The translations under genes and the position numbers were made by a program. The notes beneath the pieces were generated by a model, which was given only the letters and a program-made list of their open reading frames with translations, searched no databases and was not told where the DNA came from. DNA of 64,000 nucleotides from Nitrospirota bacterium. GTDB taxonomy: Bacteria > Nitrospirota > Thermodesulfovibrionia > Thermodesulfovibrionales > JdFR-88. Positions 6,775 through 17,639 of the stretch are shown piece after piece. The first letter of the stretch is position 1; each line of letters opens with the position of its first letter. The stretch covers positions 3,015 through 67,014 of the forward strand of contig JAKBYX010000011.1 of assembly GCA_021840255.1 (NCBI GenBank). The letters run 5' to 3'.

Positions 6775-7251
6775 CTATTTTTTTGCTGCCCTTTGGAAGA
6801 CCCCGCTTTTACCGCCGCTTTTGCGGGTGAGCATGACGTCCTGTATCACCGCTCCTTTGTCCACGGCCTTGCACATGTCATAGACGGTAAGGGCGGCCAC
6901 CGAGGCCGCAACCAGCGCCTCCATCTCCACCCCCGTCGGGCCGGTGGTCTTTACGGAGGACTCTATTTCCACGGAATTTTTTTCCTCATCCAGCCAGATA
7001 TCCACCCCGGCCTGCGAGATCGCCAGGGGATGGCAAAGAGGTATGAGCTCCGGGGTTTTTTTCGCGGCCATGATCCCCGCGATCCGGGCGGACGCCTGCA
7101 CGTCTCCCTTGGGCATGCGGCCTTCCCTTATAAGGAGGATGCTCTCCGGGCTCAGAAGGACGGTCGCGCGGGCAACCGCCTGCCTGGAGGTGGAAGGTTT
7201 CCCGCTTATGTCCACCATCCGGGCCCTTCCCTTGGCATCCAGGTGGCTCAG
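6775..7251 (-). CDS. moaC: Cyclic pyranopterin monophosphate synthase MoaC (start uncertain: CTG 7251 or ATG 7218)
   Basis: LSHLDAKGRARMVDISGK, KGDV..ARIAGIMAAKKT, LIPLCHP, TGVEMEAL, YDMCKAVDK, KSGGKSG. Confidence 0.93.
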   Translation of the reverse strand: MSHLDAKGRARMVDISGKPSTSRQAVARATVLLSPESILLIREGRMPKGDVQASARIAGIMAAKKTPELIPLCHPLAISQAGVDIWLDEEKNSVEIESSVKTTGPTGVEMEALVAASVAALTVYDMCKAVDKGAVIQDVMLTRKSGGKSGVFQRAAKK

Positions 7252-7277: not shown

Positions 7278-8231
7278 TTACCCCCGTCTTGATCTTTTCA
7301 CCTTTTTAAGCAGCGCCTTCGCGGTTTTTGCCTGATGGCTTTTGGGGTATTTCTCTATGACCTGCCTGAAAAGCGCCGCTGCCACCTTCTTGTCATTCGT
7401 CTTCAGGAAAGAGATGCCCTGCTGCAAAAGCGCGTTTGGCACCTTTATGCTCTTTGGGTAGTGTTTTACGACCTTTTCATATGCGAGTATTGCCTGGTCA
7501 TAGTTTTTCTGCTTGAAATAACTTTCGGCTATCCAGAACTGCGAGTTTCCGGCAAGTGGATCATCCGGGAATTTCTTTAAGAACTTCTCAAACCCCTGCC
7601 TGGCGCCGTCGTATTTTCCACTCTGGTAACTGGCATATGCTTTGTCATAAACGGTCTGGGGCGTCTGGGCTGCTTCCTGCGCCTGCTGTTGTTCCTTTGC
7701 TGCCTGGGCGGCTTGAGCGGCCTGCGCTGCCTTCACCTGGGCTGCCTGGGCCTGCAACGCGGTCTCAAGCTTGGTGATCCTGCTGCCAAGGGAGTCCAGC
7801 GCGGTTTGCTGCTGCGCTATCTTTTTTTCCAGTCCTGCCGTCTCTGAAGACTGGTCGGAAAAGAACTGCTGGTTTTGGTGCTTTTGCTCATCCACGCTGC
7901 CCCTGAGATTGTTCAGATCGCTCTGCATGCTCGACAACTGGTCCAGCACTCCCGCCTGCGAAGACCTTATGGTGTGCAGTTCCGTTGCACTCTTGGAGGA
8001 AAGTGTTTTCTGGGACGCCTGGATGTTGGTGCTCATGCTGTTGACCTGGGTTTGAAGCGTATACGTCTGGTTTTGTAGCTCGCTTATGTCCGCCTTCATC
8101 TGGGCCTGGTCATCTGCGCAGCCGGCGGTCAGCGCGGCAATGGCGCATAACAAAACCAGAACGGGCCAGTGTTTTTTAAAAAAAACGCCTATCATGTCTT
8201 TTTTGCCTTTTTTGTCTTCTTTTCTCCCCAT
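7278..8231 (-). CDS. cpoB: Tol-Pal associated cell division coordinator CpoB/YbgF (predicted lipoprotein)
   Basis: Lipobox LTAGC, long coiled coil, TPRs (FLKKFPDDPLAGNSQFWIAESYF; YPKSIKVPNALLQQG); directly downstream of tolB. Confidence 0.88.
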   Translation of the reverse strand: MGRKEDKKGKKDMIGVFFKKHWPVLVLLCAIAALTAGCADDQAQMKADISELQNQTYTLQTQVNSMSTNIQASQKTLSSKSATELHTIRSSQAGVLDQLSSMQSDLNNLRGSVDEQKHQNQQFFSDQSSETAGLEKKIAQQQTALDSLGSRITKLETALQAQAAQVKAAQAAQAAQAAKEQQQAQEAAQTPQTVYDKAYASYQSGKYDGARQGFEKFLKKFPDDPLAGNSQFWIAESYFKQKNYDQAILAYEKVVKHYPKSIKVPNALLQQGISFLKTNDKKVAAALFRQVIEKYPKSHQAKTAKALLKKVKRSRRG

Positions 8232-8262
8232 TATGCCTCCGTCCAAAAGATTTTTTTGTTTT

Positions 8263-9567
8263 TTATTGAAAACTCCATCTTGGACCATATGCGGTCATGC
8301 CGGGCGGGCTCAGCCTTTTCTGGTTCTTGCCGTTGGCCTGCATTACGTAGATCTCCCTGCGCCCGTCACGGTTTGAGGTGAATGCGATAAGGCTGCCGTC
8401 TGGTGAGAAGCATGGTTGGTCGTTGACGCCCGCGTCCGTAAGGAGCATCTGGTCCGATCCGTCCGTTTTGACAGTGAATATCTGGCTGATGCCGTCGTAT
8501 CTTCCCACAAAAACTATCCTTTTTCCGTCGGGCGACCATGCCGGGGAGGTATTGTAATTTCCCTGGAATGTAACCCTCGAAATATTATAGCCATCAGAGT
8601 CCATGATGTAAATCTGGGCGTTGCCGCTCCTGTCGGATACGAACGCTATCTTTTTGCCGTCAGGAGAGAAGGCCGGAGACACGTCTATCCCCAGGGATTT
8701 TGTCAGTCTCACAAGCTTGCCGTTACCCAGCTTTTCATATAGATTGGGGCTGCCTTTGAAGGAAGAAGAGAAGACCACATCTCCGGCTGCGTCAATGTCC
8801 CCGGCCAGGTTTGTGCCTCCGGCCCGGAAGACTGCGGTTTCCCTTGCCCCCGCCAGATTGATCTTGTATATGCCCCACGCCCTGTGGCGCTCCGCTGTAT
8901 AAAGCAAGGTCCCCCCGTCCCTGGACCACCTTGGGGGCAGCAGTATCGTTTCATTGAGCCCCAGAAAGCGCATGCGCCTTGTGTCCCAGTCGGAGACCAC
9001 GATGTCTTTCCTGCCCCTTTTGGTGGTGATGAAGGCGAGCCTGCTTGTAAACGGGCCCTTAAGGCCTGTAAGCGCCTGGTATATATCTTCCGCCATGGAA
9101 TGGGAAAGCGGCCTCAGGAGGTCCTCGGGGGCGCTGTAGGTCTTGCTCAGGATGGCGGCCCCGGACTCCACGTCATAAAGGGTCGCCGAGACCTGGAACT
9201 CACCCTCTGGCGTGTAATTAACCGTGCCCTTCAGCACGAAAAACACCCCCGCCGGCTGCCAGTCCGCACGGTTGAAAGGCTGGTAAGGGGCCTCGGTAAA
9301 ACCTTTTTTGTCAAGGAACAGGAACAGTCCTGTATAGTCCAGGTCTTCCTGAACCACCTTCGATATCTCCGTCCCTCCCAAACCCGAAAGAGGGCTTATG
9401 GCTATGGGGACTTTTCTGTTGGGGTTGTTGATGTTCACGTATATCATCGCCCGCGCCATGCGAGCGCAGAAGAGGGAGAGCATCGCGAAAAGGGTGAAGA
9501 ATATGGCGCCCTGGATCAGCGGATAGCGCCGGAAGGTCTTTTTCTTTTTCTGACTTTTCTCTTTCAT
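8263..9567 (-). CDS. tolB: Tol-Pal beta-propeller protein TolB
   Basis: N-terminal TolB domain (DLDYTGLF) plus PD40 repeats (SPAFSPDGKKIAFVSDRSG, SPAWSPDG). Confidence 0.92.
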   Translation of the reverse strand: MKEKSQKKKKTFRRYPLIQGAIFFTLFAMLSLFCARMARAMIYVNINNPNRKVPIAISPLSGLGGTEISKVVQEDLDYTGLFLFLDKKGFTEAPYQPFNRADWQPAGVFFVLKGTVNYTPEGEFQVSATLYDVESGAAILSKTYSAPEDLLRPLSHSMAEDIYQALTGLKGPFTSRLAFITTKRGRKDIVVSDWDTRRMRFLGLNETILLPPRWSRDGGTLLYTAERHRAWGIYKINLAGARETAVFRAGGTNLAGDIDAAGDVVFSSSFKGSPNLYEKLGNGKLVRLTKSLGIDVSPAFSPDGKKIAFVSDRSGNAQIYIMDSDGYNISRVTFQGNYNTSPAWSPDGKRIVFVGRYDGISQIFTVKTDGSDQMLLTDAGVNDQPCFSPDGSLIAFTSNRDGRREIYVMQANGKNQKRLSPPGMTAYGPRWSFQ

Positions 9568-9600
9568 GATACCCAAATTATTAAAATGACCTCCTTTTTT

Positions 9601-10332
9601 TCAATCCGGGTTGAAGACAAATCCTACCTCAAGGCCGCCCGGCGGCAGCACCCCCGGCGGGGGCGGCACCTTTGCCGTCCTTTGAATGGCCCTTATCGCG
9701 GACTGGTCAAAAAGCCCGTTGCCTGAGCGCTTCTCAAACCCTTTGGCGACAAGGGTCCCGTCTTTAAGGATGTCTATGGTGACCGTGGCCTCTATCCCGT
9801 GGACCTTAGCGTCCGGAAGATACCAGTTTCTCCAGATAGACCCCTTCACTTGGCTTAAGTATCCCTTAAGCGCGGTATTATCCCCCGCGCCTGCCTGTGC
9901 GCTGCCTCCTGCGTGGCCTTTGTTTTTACTGCTTTTGCTGCTTTTGTTTATGACCACTTTTTCTCTAAGCTTTACCTTTTTTTCGATCCCGTTTACGGCC
10001 CGCTCGATATCCACGCTCTGCTGTATCCTGGCCAGTTCTTTAGCTATCAGGGCATCGCTTTCATGCGAATGCCTCTCAGGCCTCTTTTCCGGCATGGCCA
10101 TCGAGGCCTTTTTTTCAACAGGGACCGGGCGGGGGGCTTTGGTCTGCGCCAATTGTCTTTCAGTAACGGGTTTTCTGCTTTCCGCCGGTTTATCAAATCT
10201 GCCGGCAGGCGAGACCAGGTCCACCTGGAACGGTTGGGGTATTATGAAGGGCTTTTTGAGCGTTATGGCAAGCGCGGACAGTATGACCGCGTGAAACAAT
10301 ACCGACAGGAAGAGCGTTTTTTCAAAAGTCAT
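9601..10332 (-). CDS. tolA: TolA/TonB family energy transducer
   Basis: N-terminal TM helix with SxxxH (SVLFH), Pro/Lys linker, TonB-C domain (IWRNW..SGNGLFDQSAIRAI); located between tolR and tolB. Confidence 0.8.
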   Translation of the reverse strand: MTFEKTLFLSVLFHAVILSALAITLKKPFIIPQPFQVDLVSPAGRFDKPAESRKPVTERQLAQTKAPRPVPVEKKASMAMPEKRPERHSHESDALIAKELARIQQSVDIERAVNGIEKKVKLREKVVINKSSKSSKNKGHAGGSAQAGAGDNTALKGYLSQVKGSIWRNWYLPDAKVHGIEATVTIDILKDGTLVAKGFEKRSGNGLFDQSAIRAIQRTAKVPPPPGVLPPGGLEVGFVFNPD

Positions 10333-10367
10333 CCAGGCGCTTTACTTTTTTCGCTTTTTGTTTTTGC

Positions 10368-10769
10368 CTATTTGTTCTTCAGTGGTTCGGTCACGATGCC
10401 CAGTTTCTGGATCCCGGCGTCCTTAATCTCGCCCATCACCTGCGCGACCCTTCCGTACGAGACAGCCCTGTCAGCCTCCAGGTAGACGTCCGGGTCCTCC
10501 TTGCTGAGCATGCTGAGCCGGGCCTTCATCTGTTCCATGTTGAGCCTGGCTCCCTTCATGTAGAGACTTCCGTCCTTCTTTACGTTTATCGTTATAGGGC
10601 CTTCATAGGGAAGGGACTTGCCTTTGGCCTGCGGGAGATTGACGTCCACCCCCTGTTTCATAAGCGGCGCCGTCACCATGAAGATGACCAGCAGCACCAG
10701 CATTACGTCAACAAGAGGAGTGACATTTATTTCCGAGAGGCTGCCGCGGCCCTGCCTTTCACCTGTCAC
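10368..10769 (-). CDS. tolR: TolR/ExbD
   Basis: SEINVTPLVDVMLVLLVIFMVTAP, ADRAVSYGRV. Confidence 0.92.
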   Translation of the reverse strand: MTGERQGRGSLSEINVTPLVDVMLVLLVIFMVTAPLMKQGVDVNLPQAKGKSLPYEGPITINVKKDGSLYMKGARLNMEQMKARLSMLSKEDPDVYLEADRAVSYGRVAQVMGEIKDAGIQKLGIVTEPLKNK

Positions 10770-11385
10770 GGTTTGCGCCTGTAAGGATCGCTTCTATCTC
10801 GGGGGAGAGGCTTTCCATCTCCTGGATGGCGCGCCTGGTCCTGCCTACATAATAGTTATAGCCTATAACGGCCGGGATTGCCGCCACAAGCCCGAACGCC
10901 GTTGTGATCAGCGCCTCCGAAATGCCGGGGGCCACTACCGCGAGGGACGCGCTTCCCTTGAAGCCTATGCCCCTGAAGGCGTTGACTATCCCCCATACGG
11001 TCCCGAAAAGACCGATAAACGGGGTGGTTGAACCGGTTGTGGCAAGAAAGTTCACATACTTTTCTATCTTTCCGGCCTCTACTACCTCCTGCCGGTTTAT
11101 GGCCCGCTTCAGCCGTTCCTTCGATACCGCCTCGGGAAACACGTTCCTGTAAAGGCTTGCCGCGGGGCTTGTGTCCAGGGCCTTCGCCTGGGCGAGCGTC
11201 CCCCTTGCGTCCCCGCTGTCGAGCACCCGGATGAATATCCGGTTCTGCCTTTCCAGCCTGGACATGTACTGGTATTTGTAGATGATTATCGCCCAGGAGA
11301 CAACGGAGAACGTAAGCAGCAATAATACGACCAATTTCACCAGCATGCTGGCTTCGAGTACCATCTGTAAAGGGTTTGTTTCCAT
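10759..11385 (-). CDS. tolQ: TolQ (MotA/TolQ/ExbB family)
   Basis: LATTGSTTPFIGLFGTVWGI, VAPGISEALITTAFGLVAAIPA. Confidence 0.93.
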   Translation of the reverse strand: METNPLQMVLEASMLVKLVVLLLLTFSVVSWAIIIYKYQYMSRLERQNRIFIRVLDSGDARGTLAQAKALDTSPAASLYRNVFPEAVSKERLKRAINRQEVVEAGKIEKYVNFLATTGSTTPFIGLFGTVWGIVNAFRGIGFKGSASLAVVAPGISEALITTAFGLVAAIPAVIGYNYYVGRTRRAIQEMESLSPEIEAILTGANRDR

Positions 11386-11615: not shown

Positions 11616-11951
11616 ATGCCAACCATTGAATTCCAGGGCAAACAAGTTGAATTGGATGAGGACGGTTATCTCTTAAACCTGGGGGACTGGACGCCTGAGC
11701 TTGCCAACGTTCTGGCTGAACGCGACGGCATGACCCTTACCGAGGCCCACTGGGAAGTGATCAATTTTCTCAGGGATTACTACGCTAAGTACCAGATCGC
11801 CCCTATGATCAAGATACTCGTGAAAGAGATCGCCAAGTCCATGGGCCCGGAGAAGGGCAACACCAAGTATCTCTATCAGCTGTATCCCGCCGGTCCCGCG
11901 AAGCAGGCCTGCCTTTATGCCGGCCTTCCGAAACCCACGGGGTGCGTGTAG
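11616..11951 (+). CDS. dsrC: Dissimilatory sulfite reductase partner DsrC (both C-terminal cysteines present)
   Basis: DEDGYL, HWEVINFLRDYY, C-terminal GPAKQACLYAGLPKPTGCV (CX10C); AAGGAGG SD. Confidence 0.95.
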   Translation: MPTIEFQGKQVELDEDGYLLNLGDWTPELANVLAERDGMTLTEAHWEVINFLRDYYAKYQIAPMIKILVKEIAKSMGPEKGNTKYLYQLYPAGPAKQACLYAGLPKPTGCV

Positions 11952-12102: not shown

Positions 12103-12690
12103 ATGGATCTAAAAGACTTCCTCGTAGAAAAACGCCAGGCCGTCCTCAAAAGATGGCTCGATTATGTGTTGCAGACCTATCCGGCACAGACCGCAGAGAT
12201 GCTCAAATCCAGAAAAAACCAGTTCACCAACCCGGTGGGGAAGATCATATCGGACAGCCTTGGCGCCGTCTACGATGAGCTTGTACGGCAACTCGGGGGC
12301 AAGGAGCAGGAGCCGGGAGAAGAACGCCTGGGGGAGTTTCTGGTGAACATCATCAAGGTGCGTGCTGTTCAGGATTTCACCGCATCAGGCGCGCTGGGTT
12401 TTATCTTTTCACTGAAAAAAGCAGCGAGGGAAGAGGCGGAAGGGTCCGGGTTCGCCAGGGAAGAGATATCTGCTTTTTACAGGCAGATGCTGGAGTTTGG
12501 CACCCTTGTGGACCGGCTTGCGCTGGGCGCCTTTGATTTTTATATGCAGTGCAGGGAGAAGATATACGAGCTAAAGGCGGCCGAGGTGCGAGATCACACC
12601 TTCAGGCTTCTGCAGCAGGCCAATCTTCTCGTTGAGAAGCAAAAAAAAGAAAAAGGAAAAGAAGAACACGGGGAGGAACGTAAAAATTAA
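12103..12690 (+). CDS. dsrT: DsrT (RsbRD N-terminal-like domain)
   Basis: W..TYP..QFTNPVG, IIKVRAVQDF, AFDFYMQCREKIYELK; immediately upstream of dsrMK. Confidence 0.88.
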   Translation: MDLKDFLVEKRQAVLKRWLDYVLQTYPAQTAEMLKSRKNQFTNPVGKIISDSLGAVYDELVRQLGGKEQEPGEERLGEFLVNIIKVRAVQDFTASGALGFIFSLKKAAREEAEGSGFAREEISAFYRQMLEFGTLVDRLALGAFDFYMQCREKIYELKAAEVRDHTFRLLQQANLLVEKQKKEKGKEEHGEERKN

Positions 12691-12713
12691 GCGAAGGAGG
12701 ATGAGATAAAGGG

Positions 12714-13703
12714 ATGAAAGCTCTGTTGCCTTTCCTGGCCGTAGTGTTTCTGGTTTTGCTTGTCATCGCGGGCGTAAAGGCCGCCGGCCTGTATTTCGTG
12801 TTCGGCGTACTGGTGCCTTACGCTGCCGCGGCCGTTTTCCTCTTGGGGTTTGTTTACCGGGTGGTCAAGTGGGGCAAGACGCCCGTGCCGTTCCATATCC
12901 CCACCACGTGCGGACAGCAAAAATCGCTCCCCTGGATCAAGCCCAACGGCATAGAAAATCCATCGGGCACGGGCGGTGTGGTGATTAGGATGCTCCTTGA
13001 GGTCTTCCTGTTCCGCTCCCTTTTTAAAAACCGCAAGACAAAAATGAAGGGGGAGTATCTTACATATGCGTGGGCGCCGTGGCTCTGGCTTTCCGGGATG
13101 GCGTTCCACTGGTCTTTCCTGTTCATAGTGATAAGGCATCTGAGGTTCTTTTTCCAGAGTGTGCCGGTGCCCGTGCAGGCGATCGAGCACCTGGACAGCA
13201 TCCTCAACTGGGGCGTTCCCGCGCTGTACATAACCGATGTGATATTCCTTGCGGCCGTGACCTATCTGTTTTTACGGAGAGTCACGTTGTCGCAGGTGAA
13301 GGCCATAACCCTTCCCGCTGATTTCTTCCCGCTTTTCCTGCTCTTCGGGATCGGCGCCTCAGGCGTGCTCATGAGATATTACACCAGGGTTGACGTGGTG
13401 GGCGTCAAAGAGCTTGTCATGGGCTTGGTCAGCCTTCACCCAGCGGTGGTAAGCGGCATAGGCACCATATTCTATATCCATCTTTTCCTTATCAGCACTC
13501 TTTTTGCCTATTTTCCATGGAGCAAGCTTGTGCATGCCGGCGGCGTGTTTTTGAGCCCTACCAGGAACCTGTCCAACAACAGCCGGGTAGTCCGGCATGT
13601 GAACCCATGGAGTTATCCCGTGAAGGTGCACACATACGAGGAATATGAAGATGACTTCCGGGAGAAAATGAAAATGGCCGGCGTGCCGGTGGAAAGGGAG
13701 TAG
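12714..13703 (+). CDS. dsrM: DsrM membrane b-type cytochrome (NarI/HmeC family)
   Basis: PVPFHIPTTCGQQKSLPW, FHWSF..IRHLRF, FYIHL, PWSKLVHAGGVFLSPTRN, NPW.YPVKVHTYEEYEDDFR. Confidence 0.94.
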   Translation: MKALLPFLAVVFLVLLVIAGVKAAGLYFVFGVLVPYAAAAVFLLGFVYRVVKWGKTPVPFHIPTTCGQQKSLPWIKPNGIENPSGTGGVVIRMLLEVFLFRSLFKNRKTKMKGEYLTYAWAPWLWLSGMAFHWSFLFIVIRHLRFFFQSVPVPVQAIEHLDSILNWGVPALYITDVIFLAAVTYLFLRRVTLSQVKAITLPADFFPLFLLFGIGASGVLMRYYTRVDVVGVKELVMGLVSLHPAVVSGIGTIFYIHLFLISTLFAYFPWSKLVHAGGVFLSPTRNLSNNSRVVRHVNPWSYPVKVHTYEEYEDDFREKMKMAGVPVERE

Positions 13704-13705
13704 AA

Positions 13706-15382
13706 ATGGCGAAGGAACCCAAAAAGGAAGAGCTGTTACAGAGCATAAGTTACAAGGCGCCAAAGACCTTCTGGATGGACACGCCTACGGAGATAAAGCC
13801 GGGCATGTTCTGCTGGGGCGCTAAGGCCAAGAGCCTGAACGTCGTGGGCCTGCCCAACGCCAGGGACTGGAACCCCACCGAGGAGGACTGGAAACTGCCC
13901 GAGAACTGGCAGGAAATACTCATCGAGGGACTGCGCGAGAGGCTGGACAAGTACCGCTCCCTGCGCCTGTTCCTGGACATATGCGTAAGGTGCGGGGCCT
14001 GTGCGGACAAGTGCCATTTCTACATAGGCACCGGCGACCCCAAGAACATGCCGGTGGTGAGGGGCGAGCTCATGAGGAGCGTCTACAGGAAGTACTTCAC
14101 CACCCCGGGCAAGGTGTTTGGCAAGCTGGCCGGCGCAAGGGAAATGGACCTGCAGGTGCTCAAGGAATGGTGGACCTACTTCTTCCAGTGCACGGAGTGC
14201 CGCCGCTGCTCCGTCTTCTGCCCTTACGGCATCGATCATGCGGAGATCACGATAGCGGGCAGGGAGCTTTTGAATCTCCTGGGCCTGAACATCGAATGGA
14301 TACAGGGGCCGGTCTCCAACTGTTATATGAAAGGCAATCACCTCGGCCTGGAACCCCAGACGATCGTGAGCAACGTGGAGTTCATGGTGGATGACATCGA
14401 GACCCTGACTGGCATCCGCATAAACCCAACGTTCAACAGGAAAGGGGCCGAGATACTTTTTGTGACCCCGTCGGGAGACCTCTTCGCGGACCCCGGCACA
14501 TATACCTGCATGGGGTACCTGATGCTCTTCCATGAGCTGGGTCTCGATTACACGTGGAGCACCTATGCCTCGGAGGGCGGAAACTTTGGCTTCTTCACCT
14601 CCAACGAGATGGCTAAGAGGCTTAACGCCAAGATTTACGCGGAGGCAAAGAGGCTTGGGGTGAAATGGATACTGGGCGGTGAGTGCGGCCACATGTGGAG
14701 ACTCGTTCACCAGTATATGGACACATGGAACGGCCCCGCCGATTTCCTTGAGGTCCCGAAATCCCCGATAACCGGCACGGTCTTCGAGAATGCCCGCACC
14801 ACAAAGATGACCCATATCATCGAGTTCACTGCGGACCTTATGAAACACGGCAAGCTGAAGCTGGACCCCTCCAGGAACGACCACCTGAAAGTCACGTTCC
14901 ACGACTCCTGCAATACGTCAAGGGGTATGGGGGTGTTCGAGGAGCCGCGGTTCGTGCTTAAAAACATATGCCGGAACTTCTACGAGATGCCCAGGGAGAC
15001 CATAAAGGAGCAGACGTTCTGCTGTGGCAGCGGCTCCGGCCTGAATGCCGGAGAGGACATGGAACTGCGCCTGAGGGGCGGATTGGCCAGGGCAAACGCA
15101 GTCAAGTACGTGCATGACAAGCATGACGTGAACATGCTGGCCAACATCTGCGCCATAGACAGGGCGTCCCTGACAACCTCGATGAATTACTGGGTTCCCG
15201 GGGTCACGGTGGCAGGCGTGCACGAGCTGGTGGCCAATGCCCTTGTCATGAAGGGAGAGAAAAAGAGGGAGACCGACCTGAGGGGCGAGCCTCTTCCGTC
15301 CGCGGAGGAGGAAATAAGCGTGGAGGCCAGGGCGGTGGCCCAGGCGGAAGGCGAAAAGCTGGGAGGTGAGGCTAATGTATAA
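13706..15382 (+). CDS. dsrK: DsrK iron-sulfur/CCG-domain subunit (HdrD-like)
   Basis: CVRCGACADKC, CTECRRCSVFC, GECGH, TFHDSC..TFCCGSG..CAID CCG motif. Confidence 0.96.
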   Translation: MAKEPKKEELLQSISYKAPKTFWMDTPTEIKPGMFCWGAKAKSLNVVGLPNARDWNPTEEDWKLPENWQEILIEGLRERLDKYRSLRLFLDICVRCGACADKCHFYIGTGDPKNMPVVRGELMRSVYRKYFTTPGKVFGKLAGAREMDLQVLKEWWTYFFQCTECRRCSVFCPYGIDHAEITIAGRELLNLLGLNIEWIQGPVSNCYMKGNHLGLEPQTIVSNVEFMVDDIETLTGIRINPTFNRKGAEILFVTPSGDLFADPGTYTCMGYLMLFHELGLDYTWSTYASEGGNFGFFTSNEMAKRLNAKIYAEAKRLGVKWILGGECGHMWRLVHQYMDTWNGPADFLEVPKSPITGTVFENARTTKMTHIIEFTADLMKHGKLKLDPSRNDHLKVTFHDSCNTSRGMGVFEEPRFVLKNICRNFYEMPRETIKEQTFCCGSGSGLNAGEDMELRLRGGLARANAVKYVHDKHDVNMLANICAIDRASLTTSMNYWVPGVTVAGVHELVANALVMKGEKKRETDLRGEPLPSAEEEISVEARAVAQAEGEKLGGEANV

Positions 15383-15761
15383 CGGCGGCAAGATAATCGC
15401 GGGCCTGACGATTTTCCTGGGCCTGATTACGTTTCCCATCTACTATAGCGTGGGCAAGGCCAATCCCCATCCAAACCCGTCGCTGGATACGCCCGTCATA
15501 AACCAGATGAAGGTGAAGCACTGCGTGGAGTCCAGAGAGTTCATGAGGGCCAACCACATGCGGCTGCTCCGGGGCTGGATGAAAACGGTCCTCGCCGGCA
15601 AAGGCTGCGTGTATGTCAGCTCGACTGGCGAAAAGTACAATATGAGCTGGGACACCTGCTGGAACTGCCATTCCAGCAAAAAGCAGTTCTGCGACAGGTG
15701 CCATAACTACATGGCCGTGGACCTGCCGTGCTGGAAGTGCCATTCAGAGCCCAATACGTAG
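15375..15761 (+). CDS. dsrJ: DsrJ triheme cytochrome c
   Basis: MYNGGKII signal/anchor, CVE..FMRANHM, three CxxCH (CWNCH, CDRCH, CWKCH); overlaps the dsrK stop. Confidence 0.92.
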   Translation: MYNGGKIIAGLTIFLGLITFPIYYSVGKANPHPNPSLDTPVINQMKVKHCVESREFMRANHMRLLRGWMKTVLAGKGCVYVSSTGEKYNMSWDTCWNCHSSKKQFCDRCHNYMAVDLPCWKCHSEPNT

Positions 15762-15791
15762 GTAATGCGGGGTCTTTAATACATTCAAGAC

Positions 15792-15834
15792 GGCCGGGAA
15801 CCGGGACTTGCCTCCGGTTCCCGGCCCTCCTTTT
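15792..15834 (+). terminator. Strong hairpin / terminator directly after dsrJ
   Basis: Perfect 13-bp stem ggccgggaaccgg / ccggttcccggcc followed by ctcctttt. Confidence 0.7.
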
Positions 15835-15969
15835 GAGGGTTAAGATGTTTGCAAAAAGGGCCCGTTTACAGATAATATATTGACAGTGCTTTCTCTGGTT
15901 TATATCAGGAAATCATCGTTTCAAAATTAAACTTTTTTTAAAAAGTAAAAATCCAAGGAGGTGAGTGAT

Positions 15970-16155
15970 ATGTATAACGTGTCCGTTGATTCAGCGAAGT
16001 GCGAGGGTTGCGAAGAGTGTGTAAGCATATGCCCCAATGAGGTGTTCAAGATGGCCGATGGGAAGTCTGATCCGCACCAGGGTGCCGAGTGCGTCTTCTG
16101 CGAAAGCTGCATAGGCGTTTGCCCTACCCAGGCCATTACCATTACCGAGATGTAA
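15970..16155 (+). CDS. 2[4Fe-4S] ferredoxin
   Basis: CEGCEECVSICP and CVFCESCIGVCP; AAGGAGGTG SD; TTGACA at 15880. Confidence 0.92.
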   Translation: MYNVSVDSAKCEGCEECVSICPNEVFKMADGKSDPHQGAECVFCESCIGVCPTQAITITEM

Positions 16156-16175: not shown

Positions 16176-16213
16176 AAAAAGAGAGGGGGAAACTTTTCCC
16201 CCTCTCTTTTTTT
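16176..16213. terminator. Bidirectional terminator between the ferredoxin gene and tusA
   Basis: aaaaagagagggggaaa-ct-tttccccctctcttttttt, with A and T tails on both sides. Confidence 0.85.
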
Positions 16214-16241: not shown

Positions 16242-16493
16242 CTACTTTTTCTGTATGTAAAGCTCCCAGTAGCCTTTGTCTTCCAGCTTCTTGGACTCGA
16301 ACCCGTAGCCAAGCTTCTGGGCCCACCTGGGTATCGTGTCTTCGGCGGAAGCGGGCGCATCGCAGAGGACCTTTATAATGTCGCCCCCCTTGAGTTTCTC
16401 GATCGCCTTTTTTGTCAGAACCAGGGGATAGGGGCACACCCTTCCCAGCGTATCCAGAACTTCTGTCGGTGCAGTGCTGCTTAGTTCGCCCAT
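16242..16493 (-). CDS. tusA: TusA family sulfur carrier
   Basis: LDTLGRVCPYP (CPxP motif), IKVLCD, WELYIQK; AAGGAGGAG SD. Confidence 0.92.
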   Translation of the reverse strand: MGELSSTAPTEVLDTLGRVCPYPLVLTKKAIEKLKGGDIIKVLCDAPASAEDTIPRWAQKLGYGFESKKLEDKGYWELYIQKK

Positions 16494-16556: not shown

Positions 16557-16967
16557 CTAAAAGAAAAGGACGTGCTTGGCCTCTTCCATTATTTTTTCTA
16601 TCTGGGCAAACGGAACGACATTCATCCTCTTTTCCGCCCCCATATCATCCGCATCCGGCAGCTGGTCTTCCGTTATGCCGTATTTCTCCATGTCTTCCTT
16701 GCATACATATACGTCAAGGTCGACCAAGAGGCAGTTTTTCGCGTGCAGCTCGCTTGAGTTAATGCCGTAAGGGGCCATTGCATTTTGCCCCTTGGATATG
16801 CCCAGCAGACCCTCGCCCACAAAGCAGAGCGAAGGGGTAACCGTGTCCCCATCCTCAAGGAGCACCTCCACGGTCTGGTAAGAGAGGGCATGCGTCAGGG
16901 CAAGCCTTGAAGTCTCACCCTTATACTGCGGCCTCTGGACTATGAATGCGCATTTGATGTCCGCCAT
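16557..16967 (-). CDS. DsrF/TusC-like protein (DsrE/F superfamily)
   Basis: AFIVQRPQY, LCFVGEGL..KGQ, VYVCKEDMEKYGI, VLFF C-terminus; second of three DsrE/F/H-sized genes next to tusA. Confidence 0.7.
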   Translation of the reverse strand: MADIKCAFIVQRPQYKGETSRLALTHALSYQTVEVLLEDGDTVTPSLCFVGEGLLGISKGQNAMAPYGINSSELHAKNCLLVDLDVYVCKEDMEKYGITEDQLPDADDMGAEKRMNVVPFAQIEKIMEEAKHVLFF

Positions 16968-16970
16968 TAT

Positions 16971-17330
16971 TTATTCACCTCCTATTTGCAGGACCCTGTC
17001 GGCGCAGTGAACCTTGGACAGGTACCAGTGCATCGCGTTCCACTGTATCTTCGCTATGCTCTCGGTCTTTTGGATGCCCCTTGACACGGTGCAAGCCTCG
17101 CAGGTGCATACCTCAACTCCCTTTTCCATCAGTTCAACCAGGTACTTCTCGCCGGTCGAATAGTCCTTCAGGTGTTTCTGGTGGGCCTTTACGGAAACGG
17201 TGGCATTGCCAGAAAACCAGATGTTAACAACATGTCCTTTGTCTGCGGCCGCATTGGCCAACCTTAACGCAAAGTCATAACACCCCGAGCCCACAAGGCC
17301 GGGGAAAACGCCCATCGTCAGAACTCCCAT
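16971..17330 (-). CDS. DsrE/TusD-like sulfurtransferase
   Basis: FALRLANAAADKGH.V.IWFSGNA, VCTCEACTVSRG (Cys at the DsrE active-site position), ADRVL. Confidence 0.75.
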   Translation of the reverse strand: MGVLTMGVFPGLVGSGCYDFALRLANAAADKGHVVNIWFSGNATVSVKAHQKHLKDYSTGEKYLVELMEKGVEVCTCEACTVSRGIQKTESIAKIQWNAMHWYLSKVHCADRVLQIGGE

Positions 17331-17342
17331 CTTTATGTCCTC

Positions 17343-17639
17343 CTAGAGCCAGGCTACTTTTTCAAAATCGTTAAAAATGACGTCAACCAGTCCGCTGTAA
17401 TCCACTACCTTGACCCTCTTGTCCACCTTATCAGGCGAAAGCCCTCTTGTCTGCAGGTCCTCGGAAAGGGCATAAAGCCTGGGTGTTTTATCAAGCAGGG
17501 CAGACTCCTTGCCGCCCTCCTTGAGCACCGCATGGTAAACTCCGTTCTGCACCAGGATGATGCCCACGTTTTCCCCTTTCATCCTGTCCAGGGTTTCGAC
17601 GGCAAGCTTATAATCGCTGACAAATACGCCAAGTTTCAT
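17343..17639 (-). CDS. DsrH/TusB-like protein
   Basis: ILVQNGVYHA, LYALSEDLQTRGL, VVDYSGLVDVI..VAWL. Confidence 0.85.
   Translation of the reverse strand: MKLGVFVSDYKLAVETLDRMKGENVGIILVQNGVYHAVLKEGGKESALLDKTPRLYALSEDLQTRGLSPDKVDKRVKVVDYSGLVDVIFNDFEKVAWL

Follow-up and report, generated by a model that had tools for sequence, protein, structure and literature searches.

We analysed a stretch of 64,000 nucleotides (the window) from contig JAKBYX010000011.1 of a Nitrospirota bacterium of the order Thermodesulfovibrionales (assembly GCA_021840255.1), which carries genes of the DsrMKJOP membrane complex of sulfite respiration but neither dsrO nor dsrP. The locus begins on the plus strand with dsrC (11616–11951), encoding 111 amino acids with the C-terminus ...CLYAGLPKPTGCV and matching TIGR03342 (159.4 bits) and Pfam DsrC (151 bits). 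It is followed on the same strand by dsrT (12103–12690; 195 amino acids; Pfam RsbRD_N, 76.9 bits), dsrM for the membrane dihaem subunit (12714–13703; 329 amino acids; NF038037, 512 bits, cut-off 300), dsrK for the catalytic Fe-S subunit (13706–15382; 558 amino acids; NF045796, 725.3 bits, cut-off 400) and dsrJ for the membrane-anchored trihaem cytochrome c (15375–15761; NF038038, 143.5 bits, cut-off 100). DsrM, DsrK and DsrJ all exceed the family cut-offs of the canonical DsrMKJOP complex. The likely start of dsrJ is the ATG at 15375, its longest open reading frame (ORF) begins with a GTG at 15366, and its 5′ end overlaps the 3′ end of dsrK. The protein has three CxxCH motifs, an N-terminal membrane helix as anchor, and Cys53, a known haem ligand in the DsrJ family.

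An earlier note, made from this sequence without database searches, had described dsrT, dsrM, dsrK and dsrJ as intact and the operon as ending after dsrJ, with no dsrO, dsrP or remnant of them. The ORFs and the family scans bear this out. A scan of the window found neither gene, and tblastn of 15700–16000 with four canonical DsrP and two DsrO queries returned noise (best E values 2–9). The same searches for dsrOP remnants gave nothing but noise in the sister genome G001 and in a 1.3-kb gap 3′ of dsrJ in a related genome, G007.

Downstream of dsrJ, a terminator-like hairpin on the plus strand (15792–15826) has a 7-nt loop and a T-rich tail, CTCCTTTTGA. It folds at −41 kcal/mol (z = −3.08), and none of 200 shuffled sequences folds equally well. 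The hairpin reported in the earlier note is real, with a stem of 14 pairs (11 of them G-C) and not 13. In the sister genomes G001 and G002 a hairpin of different sequence stands at the equivalent place. The promoter proposed in that note does not stand: its TTGACA, at 15880, is present, fails the promoter scan and is not conserved in G001 or G002. The conserved element in both is a promoter-like TTGCAA-N16-GATAAT on the plus strand 5′ of the ferredoxin gene (15849–15876). This element, found in a consensus scan, is a consensus match only, and promoter-like sites in the region occur at chance level (5 found, 4.2 expected). The ferredoxin itself is as previously described: a gene on the plus strand, from the ATG at 15970 to 16155, encodes 61 amino acids with two CxxCxxCxxxCP motifs for 2[4Fe-4S] (Pfam Fer4_7, 46 bits) and has an AAGGAGG site ahead of it. 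When its upstream region was compared with those of 18 canonical loci, the ribosome-binding site was the sole shared element.

An arrangement of this kind could be an artefact, with dsrOP standing next to dsrJ in the organism and lost by misassembly or binning. The genome of the window (G000; 2.2 Mb) is a bin of 29 contigs that is 76% complete. Even so, we regard this explanation as hardly credible. The junction lies in the interior of a 68-kb contig, and contigs from three further runs bridge it without differences (15708–16116, 15200–15919 and 15640–16003); these runs come from the same study, so they are not independent of it. A run from another study, X5, covers only the flanks, and no RNA run was listed as containing the stretch. 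The same dsrJ-hairpin-ferredoxin arrangement is present in G001 and G002, two other species-level genomes of the window's genus (g1), and the junction recurs in three genomes of another order (G048, G082 and G126). Canonical DsrP is absent also from three genomes rated 100% complete (G001, G007 and G048). The misassembly that the earlier note had allowed for is contradicted by the contigs of the three runs and by the sister genomes; the junction is real.

A scan with DsrK yielded 80 loci, nearly all titled as metagenome-assembled genomes of Nitrospirae, Nitrospirota or Thermodesulfovibrionales, and 74 of them could be evaluated 3′ of dsrJ. In 71 of the 74, dsrP followed within 3 kb. The usual gene order in these relatives is dsrC-T-M-K-J-O-P-ferredoxin, with dsrT in the equivalent position in at least 70 loci. 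Of the canonical loci, 57 could be evaluated for the ferredoxin, and 46 of them have a homologue of it no more than 2 kb beyond dsrP. Genes like tusA-dsrEFH were found downstream on the opposite strand in 17 loci and upstream of dsrT in 19. Since dsrOP stand between dsrJ and the ferredoxin gene in this conserved cluster, the window represents a deletion of exactly dsrOP. The ferredoxin, whose homologue follows dsrP in the canonical loci, is thus an old neighbour rather than a new partner.

Three of the 74 loci were exceptions. Two had the junction of the window; they may be the same as genomes described here under G numbers and were counted once. The third, L064, was considered as a further locus without dsrOP and rejected, as a scaffold gap (a run of N at about 7130–7150) interrupts dsrO 250 bp into the gene and is followed by unrelated sequence.

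Junctions with dsrMKJ only were found in genera g1 and g80. In all, eight species-level genomes from three genera and two orders lack dsrOP: genera g1 and g6 belong to the family of the window, and g80 belongs to another order. DsrJ scored above its cut-off in 33 of 40 related genomes. In G000, G001 and G002 (g1) and in G007 and G009 (g6), dsrJ and the sole DsrP-like gene are on different contigs, and there is no operon-type copy. Downstream of dsrJ in G007 come 1.3 kb that contain no long ORF, and beyond them unrelated genes. The five genomes form one clade, with 99% support in the DsrK tree and 100% in a DsrP tree of the distal copies described below, which fits a single loss in their common ancestor.

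In a class-wide survey of 201 genomes, 159 had DsrJ above cut-off, and 12 with a low-scoring DsrJ were followed up. Ten of these had canonical DsrP beside dsrJ and one had it on another contig, its dsrJ being at a contig edge. Only G048, of genus g80, had no canonical DsrP, and the same was true of its genus mates G082 and G126. These three genomes have the order dsrC-T-M-K-J-ferredoxin, with tusA-dsrEFH beyond it in G048 and G126; in G082 the contig ends just after the ferredoxin gene. Their only DsrP match (398–400 bits) is, again, of the distal type and on another contig. In the DsrK tree, g80 stands beside a canonical locus (99%), apart from g1 and g6 (98%). Two losses in parallel would explain this distribution, as would a single loss and subsequent lateral spread.

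The loss of dsrOP was accompanied by changes in DsrJ. For this comparison, conserved columns were those with at least 90% conservation in the 77 DsrJ sequences whose loci have dsrOP. Of 47 such columns, six were changed in all eight genomes without dsrOP; by the same count for change in both lineages, the figures were 0 of 150 for DsrM and 0 of 348 for DsrK. Lys39 is replaced by Ser or Asp, Arg72 by Met in all eight genomes, Arg77 by Ala, Ser or Glu, and Asn96 by Asp; Gln95 is deleted and Glu131 is changed. Both Arg72 and Arg77 are Arg in 77 of the 77 other sequences. In g1 and g6 alone, 8 of 47 DsrJ columns were changed, compared with 4 of 150 in DsrM and 3 of 348 in DsrK, and the next highest among 30 control clades was 3 of 44. 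The three haem motifs, Cys53, His64/Met65 and the membrane anchor were all kept. In six within-genus pairs, the ratio of nonsynonymous to synonymous substitution rates (dN/dS) was 0.04–0.11 for dsrJ and 0.02–0.07 for dsrK; by this measure dsrJ is under purifying selection. Intact haem motifs together with purifying selection suggest that DsrJ is in use, and has been freed from, or adapted to, its missing usual neighbours.

This bears on the possibility that DsrJ is a leftover and that menaquinol is oxidised at DsrM by a minimal DsrMK of the kind found in sulfite reducers among Gram-positive bacteria and archaea. DsrMK alone is described as sufficient in many organisms (preprint 10.64898/2026.08.25.746951; PMC10504309), and the DsrJ proteins at issue score lower on their family model (128–144 bits) than those of relatives (152–192 bits). 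The window's locus and minimal DsrMK also have the lack of DsrO and DsrP in common. We nevertheless consider this explanation very unlikely. It does not account for the intact and conserved dsrJ in all eight genomes or for its low dN/dS. In the same preprint, DsrM of the DsrMK systems (DsrM-1 type) has an open, NarI-like quinol site, with Gly in place of two blocking Arg and no loop in the third transmembrane helix (TMH3). The DsrM of the window is 58–69% identical to DsrM of relatives with DsrMKJOP, groups with that type and not with a separate DsrMK lineage, and retains the Arg of all 11 columns in which it is conserved to at least 99% in relatives with dsrOP. The retained Arg columns give no sign of a reversion to the open NarI-like type and argue against one.

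A second, independent scan of metagenomes gave 80 loci, of which 57 could be evaluated. The single locus with Met72 had no dsrOP; it was of the g80 type and is probably the same record as one of the genomes above. All 53 Arg72 genes in a dsr context had dsrO or dsrP downstream (in 52 of them dsrK is detectable ahead of the gene, and one lies where its contig begins). Three other Arg72 genes were solitary, with no dsr gene within 5 kb (L181 5007–5417, L183 4995–5417 and L186 878–1276). These DsrJ-like trihaem genes encode proteins that are 44–46% identical and keep Arg72 and Arg77, and their neighbours in L181 and L183 are NlpC/P60, histidine kinase, chemotaxis receptor and carboxypeptidase genes. 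DsrJ clusters from a large protein database, the best 120 of 2271 hits, comprised 10 with Met72 and 110 with Arg. One cluster there, P0059, has Met72 together with Arg77 and a canonical-like SLKDTC stretch and may be an intermediate form. A search of our copy of the PDB gave no solved-structure match for DsrJ.

The earlier note had offered relocation of dsrOP as one of two explanations and had suggested a whole-genome search. When the contigs of G000 were searched with the family profiles, the DsrP model had a single match, on contig C15, at 396.6 bits (cut-off 350). The gene preceding it is DsrO-like, with a partial match to the second half of the model (98–234) at 188 bits, below the cut-off of 200. 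Ahead of this lies a gene for a 171-amino-acid protein with a signal peptide, four CxxCH motifs and four further His, that is, a tetrahaem cytochrome. This trio (L005 8634–11412) contains the only DsrOP-like pair in the genome, and no DsrO or DsrP of canonical type was found by these profile searches. Following published work on cable bacteria, we call the two proteins DsrOh and DsrPh.

When 40 related genomes were searched with DsrPh of C15, the matches fell into two classes, 46–90% identical (trio class) and about 33–45% identical (operon class). Trio-class copies always had the order cytochrome, DsrO-like, DsrP-like (12 of 12 fetched loci), whereas operon-class copies adjoin dsrJ. Operon copies scored 484–494 bits for DsrP and 287–327 bits, full length, for DsrO. 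The corresponding scores of trio copies were 396–408 and 182–188 bits, with four of four DsrO-like copies below cut-off. In a DsrP tree of 80 rows, which covered this bacterial class only, a stem of 1.49 changes per site separated 13 trio copies from 66 operon copies, and the split had 100% support. No more than this split is claimed, as a root placed by one very long outgroup cannot be relied on.

Five genomes without DsrJ above cut-off (G016, G020, G025, G028 and G036) have the trio, as do many others that also carry a complete dsrMKJOP. It is thus a separate module and not relocated dsrOP. The idea of relocation holds to the extent that DsrO-like and DsrP-like genes do exist on C15; they are older and distant paralogues with a tetrahaem cytochrome of their own, in a clade with 100% support. 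What happened in this lineage is a real, clade-wide deletion of dsrOP, neither a misassembly nor a simple relocation.

The score of DsrPh exceeds the cut-off for the DsrP family and stays far short of those for QrcD and TtrC; in the Protein Atlas it falls only in generic NrfD clusters. Among solved structures, DsrOh is matched best by ActB of alternative complex III (6f0k_B, E = 1.9e-33), ArrB and PsrB. Four His that are invariant or nearly invariant in canonical DsrO (75, 78, 125 and 153 of the L043 protein) correspond to Val, Asn, Gln and Asn in DsrOh. In DsrOh, for its part, the first CxxCxxCxxxC motif is complete, and about 50 residues form a conserved N-terminal extension that is missing from canonical DsrO. 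Like NrfBCD, alternative complex III and Qrc-type modules, the C15 unit combines a periplasmic multihaem cytochrome, a four-cluster Fe-S protein exported by the twin-arginine translocation (Tat) system and a cofactor-less NrfD-type subunit; it differs from them in that its DsrPh passes the DsrP cut-off.

Four genes stand immediately behind the trio in g1 and g6 (L005 11626–14527, or G000:C15:57625–60526), encoding a pentahaem cytochrome c that has a membrane helix at its C-terminus, a membrane protein of 93 amino acids, a Rieske protein and cytochrome b. The small membrane protein matches DUF7318 at 25 bits, below cut-off. In other families the trio occurs without this set.

The earlier note had taken a DsrMKJ module to be undescribed. 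It is, however, already in print for cable bacteria, and its presence in Nitrospirota is new. The closed genome of a cable bacterium has dsrMKJ in synteny, with homologues of dsrOP at another place (PMC10926707, 2024). A 2026 study defines the dsrOhPh-tetrahaem locus as a distinct clade that is present in organisms without sulfur metabolism, suggests that it is not part of the Dsr complex, and calls a TMH1 gene unique to cable bacteria (PMC13047784); legends in its supplement mention long branches for cable-bacterial DsrJ. In preprint 10.64898/2026.08.25.746951, cable bacteria are the exception whose DsrMKJ "may" need an additional partner.

The resemblance to cable bacteria (Ca. Electrothrix and Ca. 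Electronema) covers several features. In both, a dsrTMKJ locus lacks dsrOP, and distal homologues of DsrO and DsrP adjoin a gene for a tetrahaem cytochrome c. The homologues form a clade apart from canonical DsrP that is found also in organisms without Dsr (here, without DsrJ above cut-off). Both have an unusually divergent DsrJ, and a reductive-looking dsrAB together with tusA and dsrEFH-like genes. The differences are that cable bacteria belong to Desulfobacterota, that the Nitrospirota genomes have no sign of a cable lifestyle and no TMH1 gene, and that the unit in g1 and g6 is followed by the pentahaem cytochrome, small membrane protein, Rieske and cytochrome b genes. The passages found in PMC10504309 and PMC9326234 contain no mention of a DsrMKJ-only state in Nitrospirota, and a literature search on dsrJ, dsrO and dsrP in Nitrospirae or Thermodesulfovibrionia gave no report of a state without dsrOP. 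New here are the phylum, the extent (eight genomes, three genera, two orders) and the DsrJ-specific substitutions that track the absence of dsrOP.

The C15 unit might have taken the place of DsrOP. DsrOh and DsrPh, with or without the tetrahaem cytochrome, would then dock on DsrMKJ, giving a complex of five or six subunits with DsrPh as its site of menaquinol oxidation, the role that DsrP has in canonical DsrMKJOP. This would agree with the DsrP family score of DsrPh (396.6 against the NCBIfam cut-off of 350) and with the retention of the unit in all eight genomes without dsrOP, compared with 9 of 28 canonical DsrJ-bearing relatives among the 40; a similar co-occurrence is seen in the published accounts of cable bacteria. 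It would not explain why the unit is found in five DsrJ-less genomes and in many with canonical dsrOP, and its own cytochrome occupies the place that DsrJ would take. None of the four invariant His of canonical DsrO is found in DsrOh, and residues that never vary in DsrJ where DsrOP is present are gone from this DsrJ. For cable bacteria, the DsrMKJOhPh assembly gave clashes and no stable prediction (preprint 10.64898/2026.08.25.746951). We consider such a replacement unlikely. Our own complex prediction for DsrJ (30–131, 5-row alignment) with DsrOh (43–319, 13-row alignment) gave a score of 0.00 in both runs with controls absent, and speaks neither for nor against binding.

In the canonical complex of Archaeoglobus fulgidus, a 2026 cryo-electron microscopy preprint has quinol oxidised at DsrP and electrons passing from DsrO to DsrJ, DsrM and DsrK, with a DsrO histidine as an axial ligand of one DsrJ haem. 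The locus in the window resembles canonical systems, including that of Nitratidesulfovibrio vulgaris (PMC10861901), in its DsrM, DsrK and DsrJ families, in the order dsrC-T-M-K-J and in the flanking ferredoxin. It differs in having no canonical DsrO or DsrP, in a DsrJ without the Arg72, Arg77, Gln95 and Asn96 that are kept wherever DsrOP is present, and in that the reported DsrO His ligand of the DsrJ haem has no donor here.

Our preferred explanation, which we hold to be probable, is that dsrOP have been deleted, that the remaining proteins form a three-subunit DsrMKJ, and that its DsrJ, in place of a bound DsrOP, has periplasmic cytochromes as its partners in electron exchange. Cytoplasmic DsrK would reduce or form the trisulfide of DsrC, whose gene heads the cluster; DsrM would carry electrons across the membrane, and trihaem DsrJ would face the periplasm. 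If, as is probable, the quinol site of DsrM is closed, electrons would have to enter or leave through DsrJ, remodelled for the absence of a bound DsrO. The most probable partner would be the tetrahaem cytochrome of the DsrOhPh unit, in which DsrOh is predicted to be a Tat-exported Fe-S protein and DsrPh an NrfD-type membrane protein, so that DsrJ would be linked to menaquinol at DsrPh. Among the ideas of the earlier note, the coupling of DsrJ to another periplasmic partner appears to be the best reading.

Several points weigh against this explanation. Both the DsrMKJ complex and the partner of DsrJ are put forward here from gene sequences, and the window's own genome is a single bin that is 76% complete. 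The probable closure of the DsrM quinol site is read solely from the retained Arg columns. The retention of DsrOhPh in all eight genomes could equally mean that it docks onto DsrMKJ as a replacement, and the C15 unit was likened to cable-bacterial DsrOhPh by its published arrangement and not by sequence comparison. With DsrK, a tree uniting the eight genomes was not rejected by the approximately unbiased test (p = 0.127). The DsrJ tree groups all eight, and the tree that unites them is the better one even when the six signature columns are removed; long branches may mislead DsrJ trees. Finally, haem-copper oxidases were considered as a lifestyle marker of the clade and rejected, as COX1 was found in 25 of the 40 relatives.

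A further-reaching form of the three-subunit explanation can be put forward only tentatively, as we find it doubtful. The loss of DsrOP with DsrJ kept would be a recurrent, selected state, in which Met72 serves as axial ligand of the haem otherwise ligated by the DsrO His. DsrJ would then be a free-standing port for electrons on the periplasmic side, served by the DsrOhPh-tetrahaem unit, whose presence would permit the loss.

Beyond the ferredoxin gene, a bidirectional terminator-like hairpin (16176–16211; 16-pair stem, T runs on both strands) separates it from a convergent group of genes on the minus strand. These encode a TusA-like sulfur carrier (16242–16493; 83 amino acids, CPYP motif; Pfam TusA, 76.6 bits), two DsrE/F-like subunits (16557–16967, 136 amino acids, Pfam DsrE 26.4 bits, with a weak match to TIGR03010; and 16971–17330, 119 amino acids, Pfam DsrE 47.2 bits) and a DsrH-like subunit (17343–17639; 98 amino acids; TIGR03011, 54.2 bits, cut-off 49.2; Pfam DsrH, 53.9 bits). 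Type II DsrEFH with tusA in Desulfobacterota and Nitrospirota has been read as a means of running the pathway in reverse (PMC13293266). On the minus strand just 5′ of dsrC lies a complete tol-pal set (7278–11385), with ybgF/cpoB and ORFs like tolB, tolA, tolR and tolQ. The remaining genes of the window are housekeeping genes.

Elsewhere in the genome, dsrAB is reductive-looking and is followed by a weak DsrD-like gene and then dsrN; aprA is also present. The ORF of 82 amino acids between dsrB and dsrN (G000:C17:17246–17494; L007 2601–2849) scores 19.9 bits on PF08679, below the cut-off of 24.2, and may be a divergent DsrD. A search of the whole genome with PF08679 (DsrD) found nothing.

The genome encodes caa3-type and cbb3-type oxidases, which are unusual in a sulfate reducer, as this organism is presumed to be. 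It also encodes several YeeE/YedE-like sulfur transporters. The caa3 set comprises COX2, cytochrome c, COX1, COX3 and CtaG (L117 6747–10757), and the cbb3 genes encode CcoN and a fused FixO/cytochrome c (L118 8483–10901; both on G000:C26). We did not use the oxidases as evidence, because they are common across the whole order. The tusA-dsrEFH neighbours and the oxidases would allow sulfur oxidation as well as reduction. Beside the caa3 genes (L117 11352–18044; G000:C26:101351–108043) are genes for a 578-amino-acid cytochrome b fused to a c-type domain, a 959-amino-acid molybdopterin oxidoreductase, a 242-amino-acid four-cluster Fe-S protein, which is a second, weaker DsrO-like match, and a DmsC-like anchor. 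One YedE/YeeE-type gene has a full-length match with one in-frame TGA in all five g1 and g6 genomes (G000:C26:24129–25112, G001:C7, G002:C52, G007:C40 and G009:C217). The TGA may stand for selenocysteine or conserved read-through rather than a broken gene.

In this uncultured Thermodesulfovibrionales bacterium, two of the five genes of the membrane complex of sulfite respiration are gone. The recurrence of this architecture in eight Nitrospirota genomes makes the cable-bacterial exception a repeatable design, and the DsrOhPh-tetrahaem unit is retained in every such genome found here. For annotation there is a warning in this: a DsrP match that lies elsewhere in a genome and exceeds the curated cut-off does not imply a DsrMKJOP complex. 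The few DsrJ positions whose changes are confined to genomes without DsrOP offer a comparative handle on the partner of DsrJ, and Met for Arg in the W-R-D motif of DsrJ is suggested as a sequence marker for further cases. On the more tentative reading above, the loss of DsrOP with retention of DsrJ, now seen in cable bacteria and two orders of Nitrospirota, would not be an oddity of cable bacteria.

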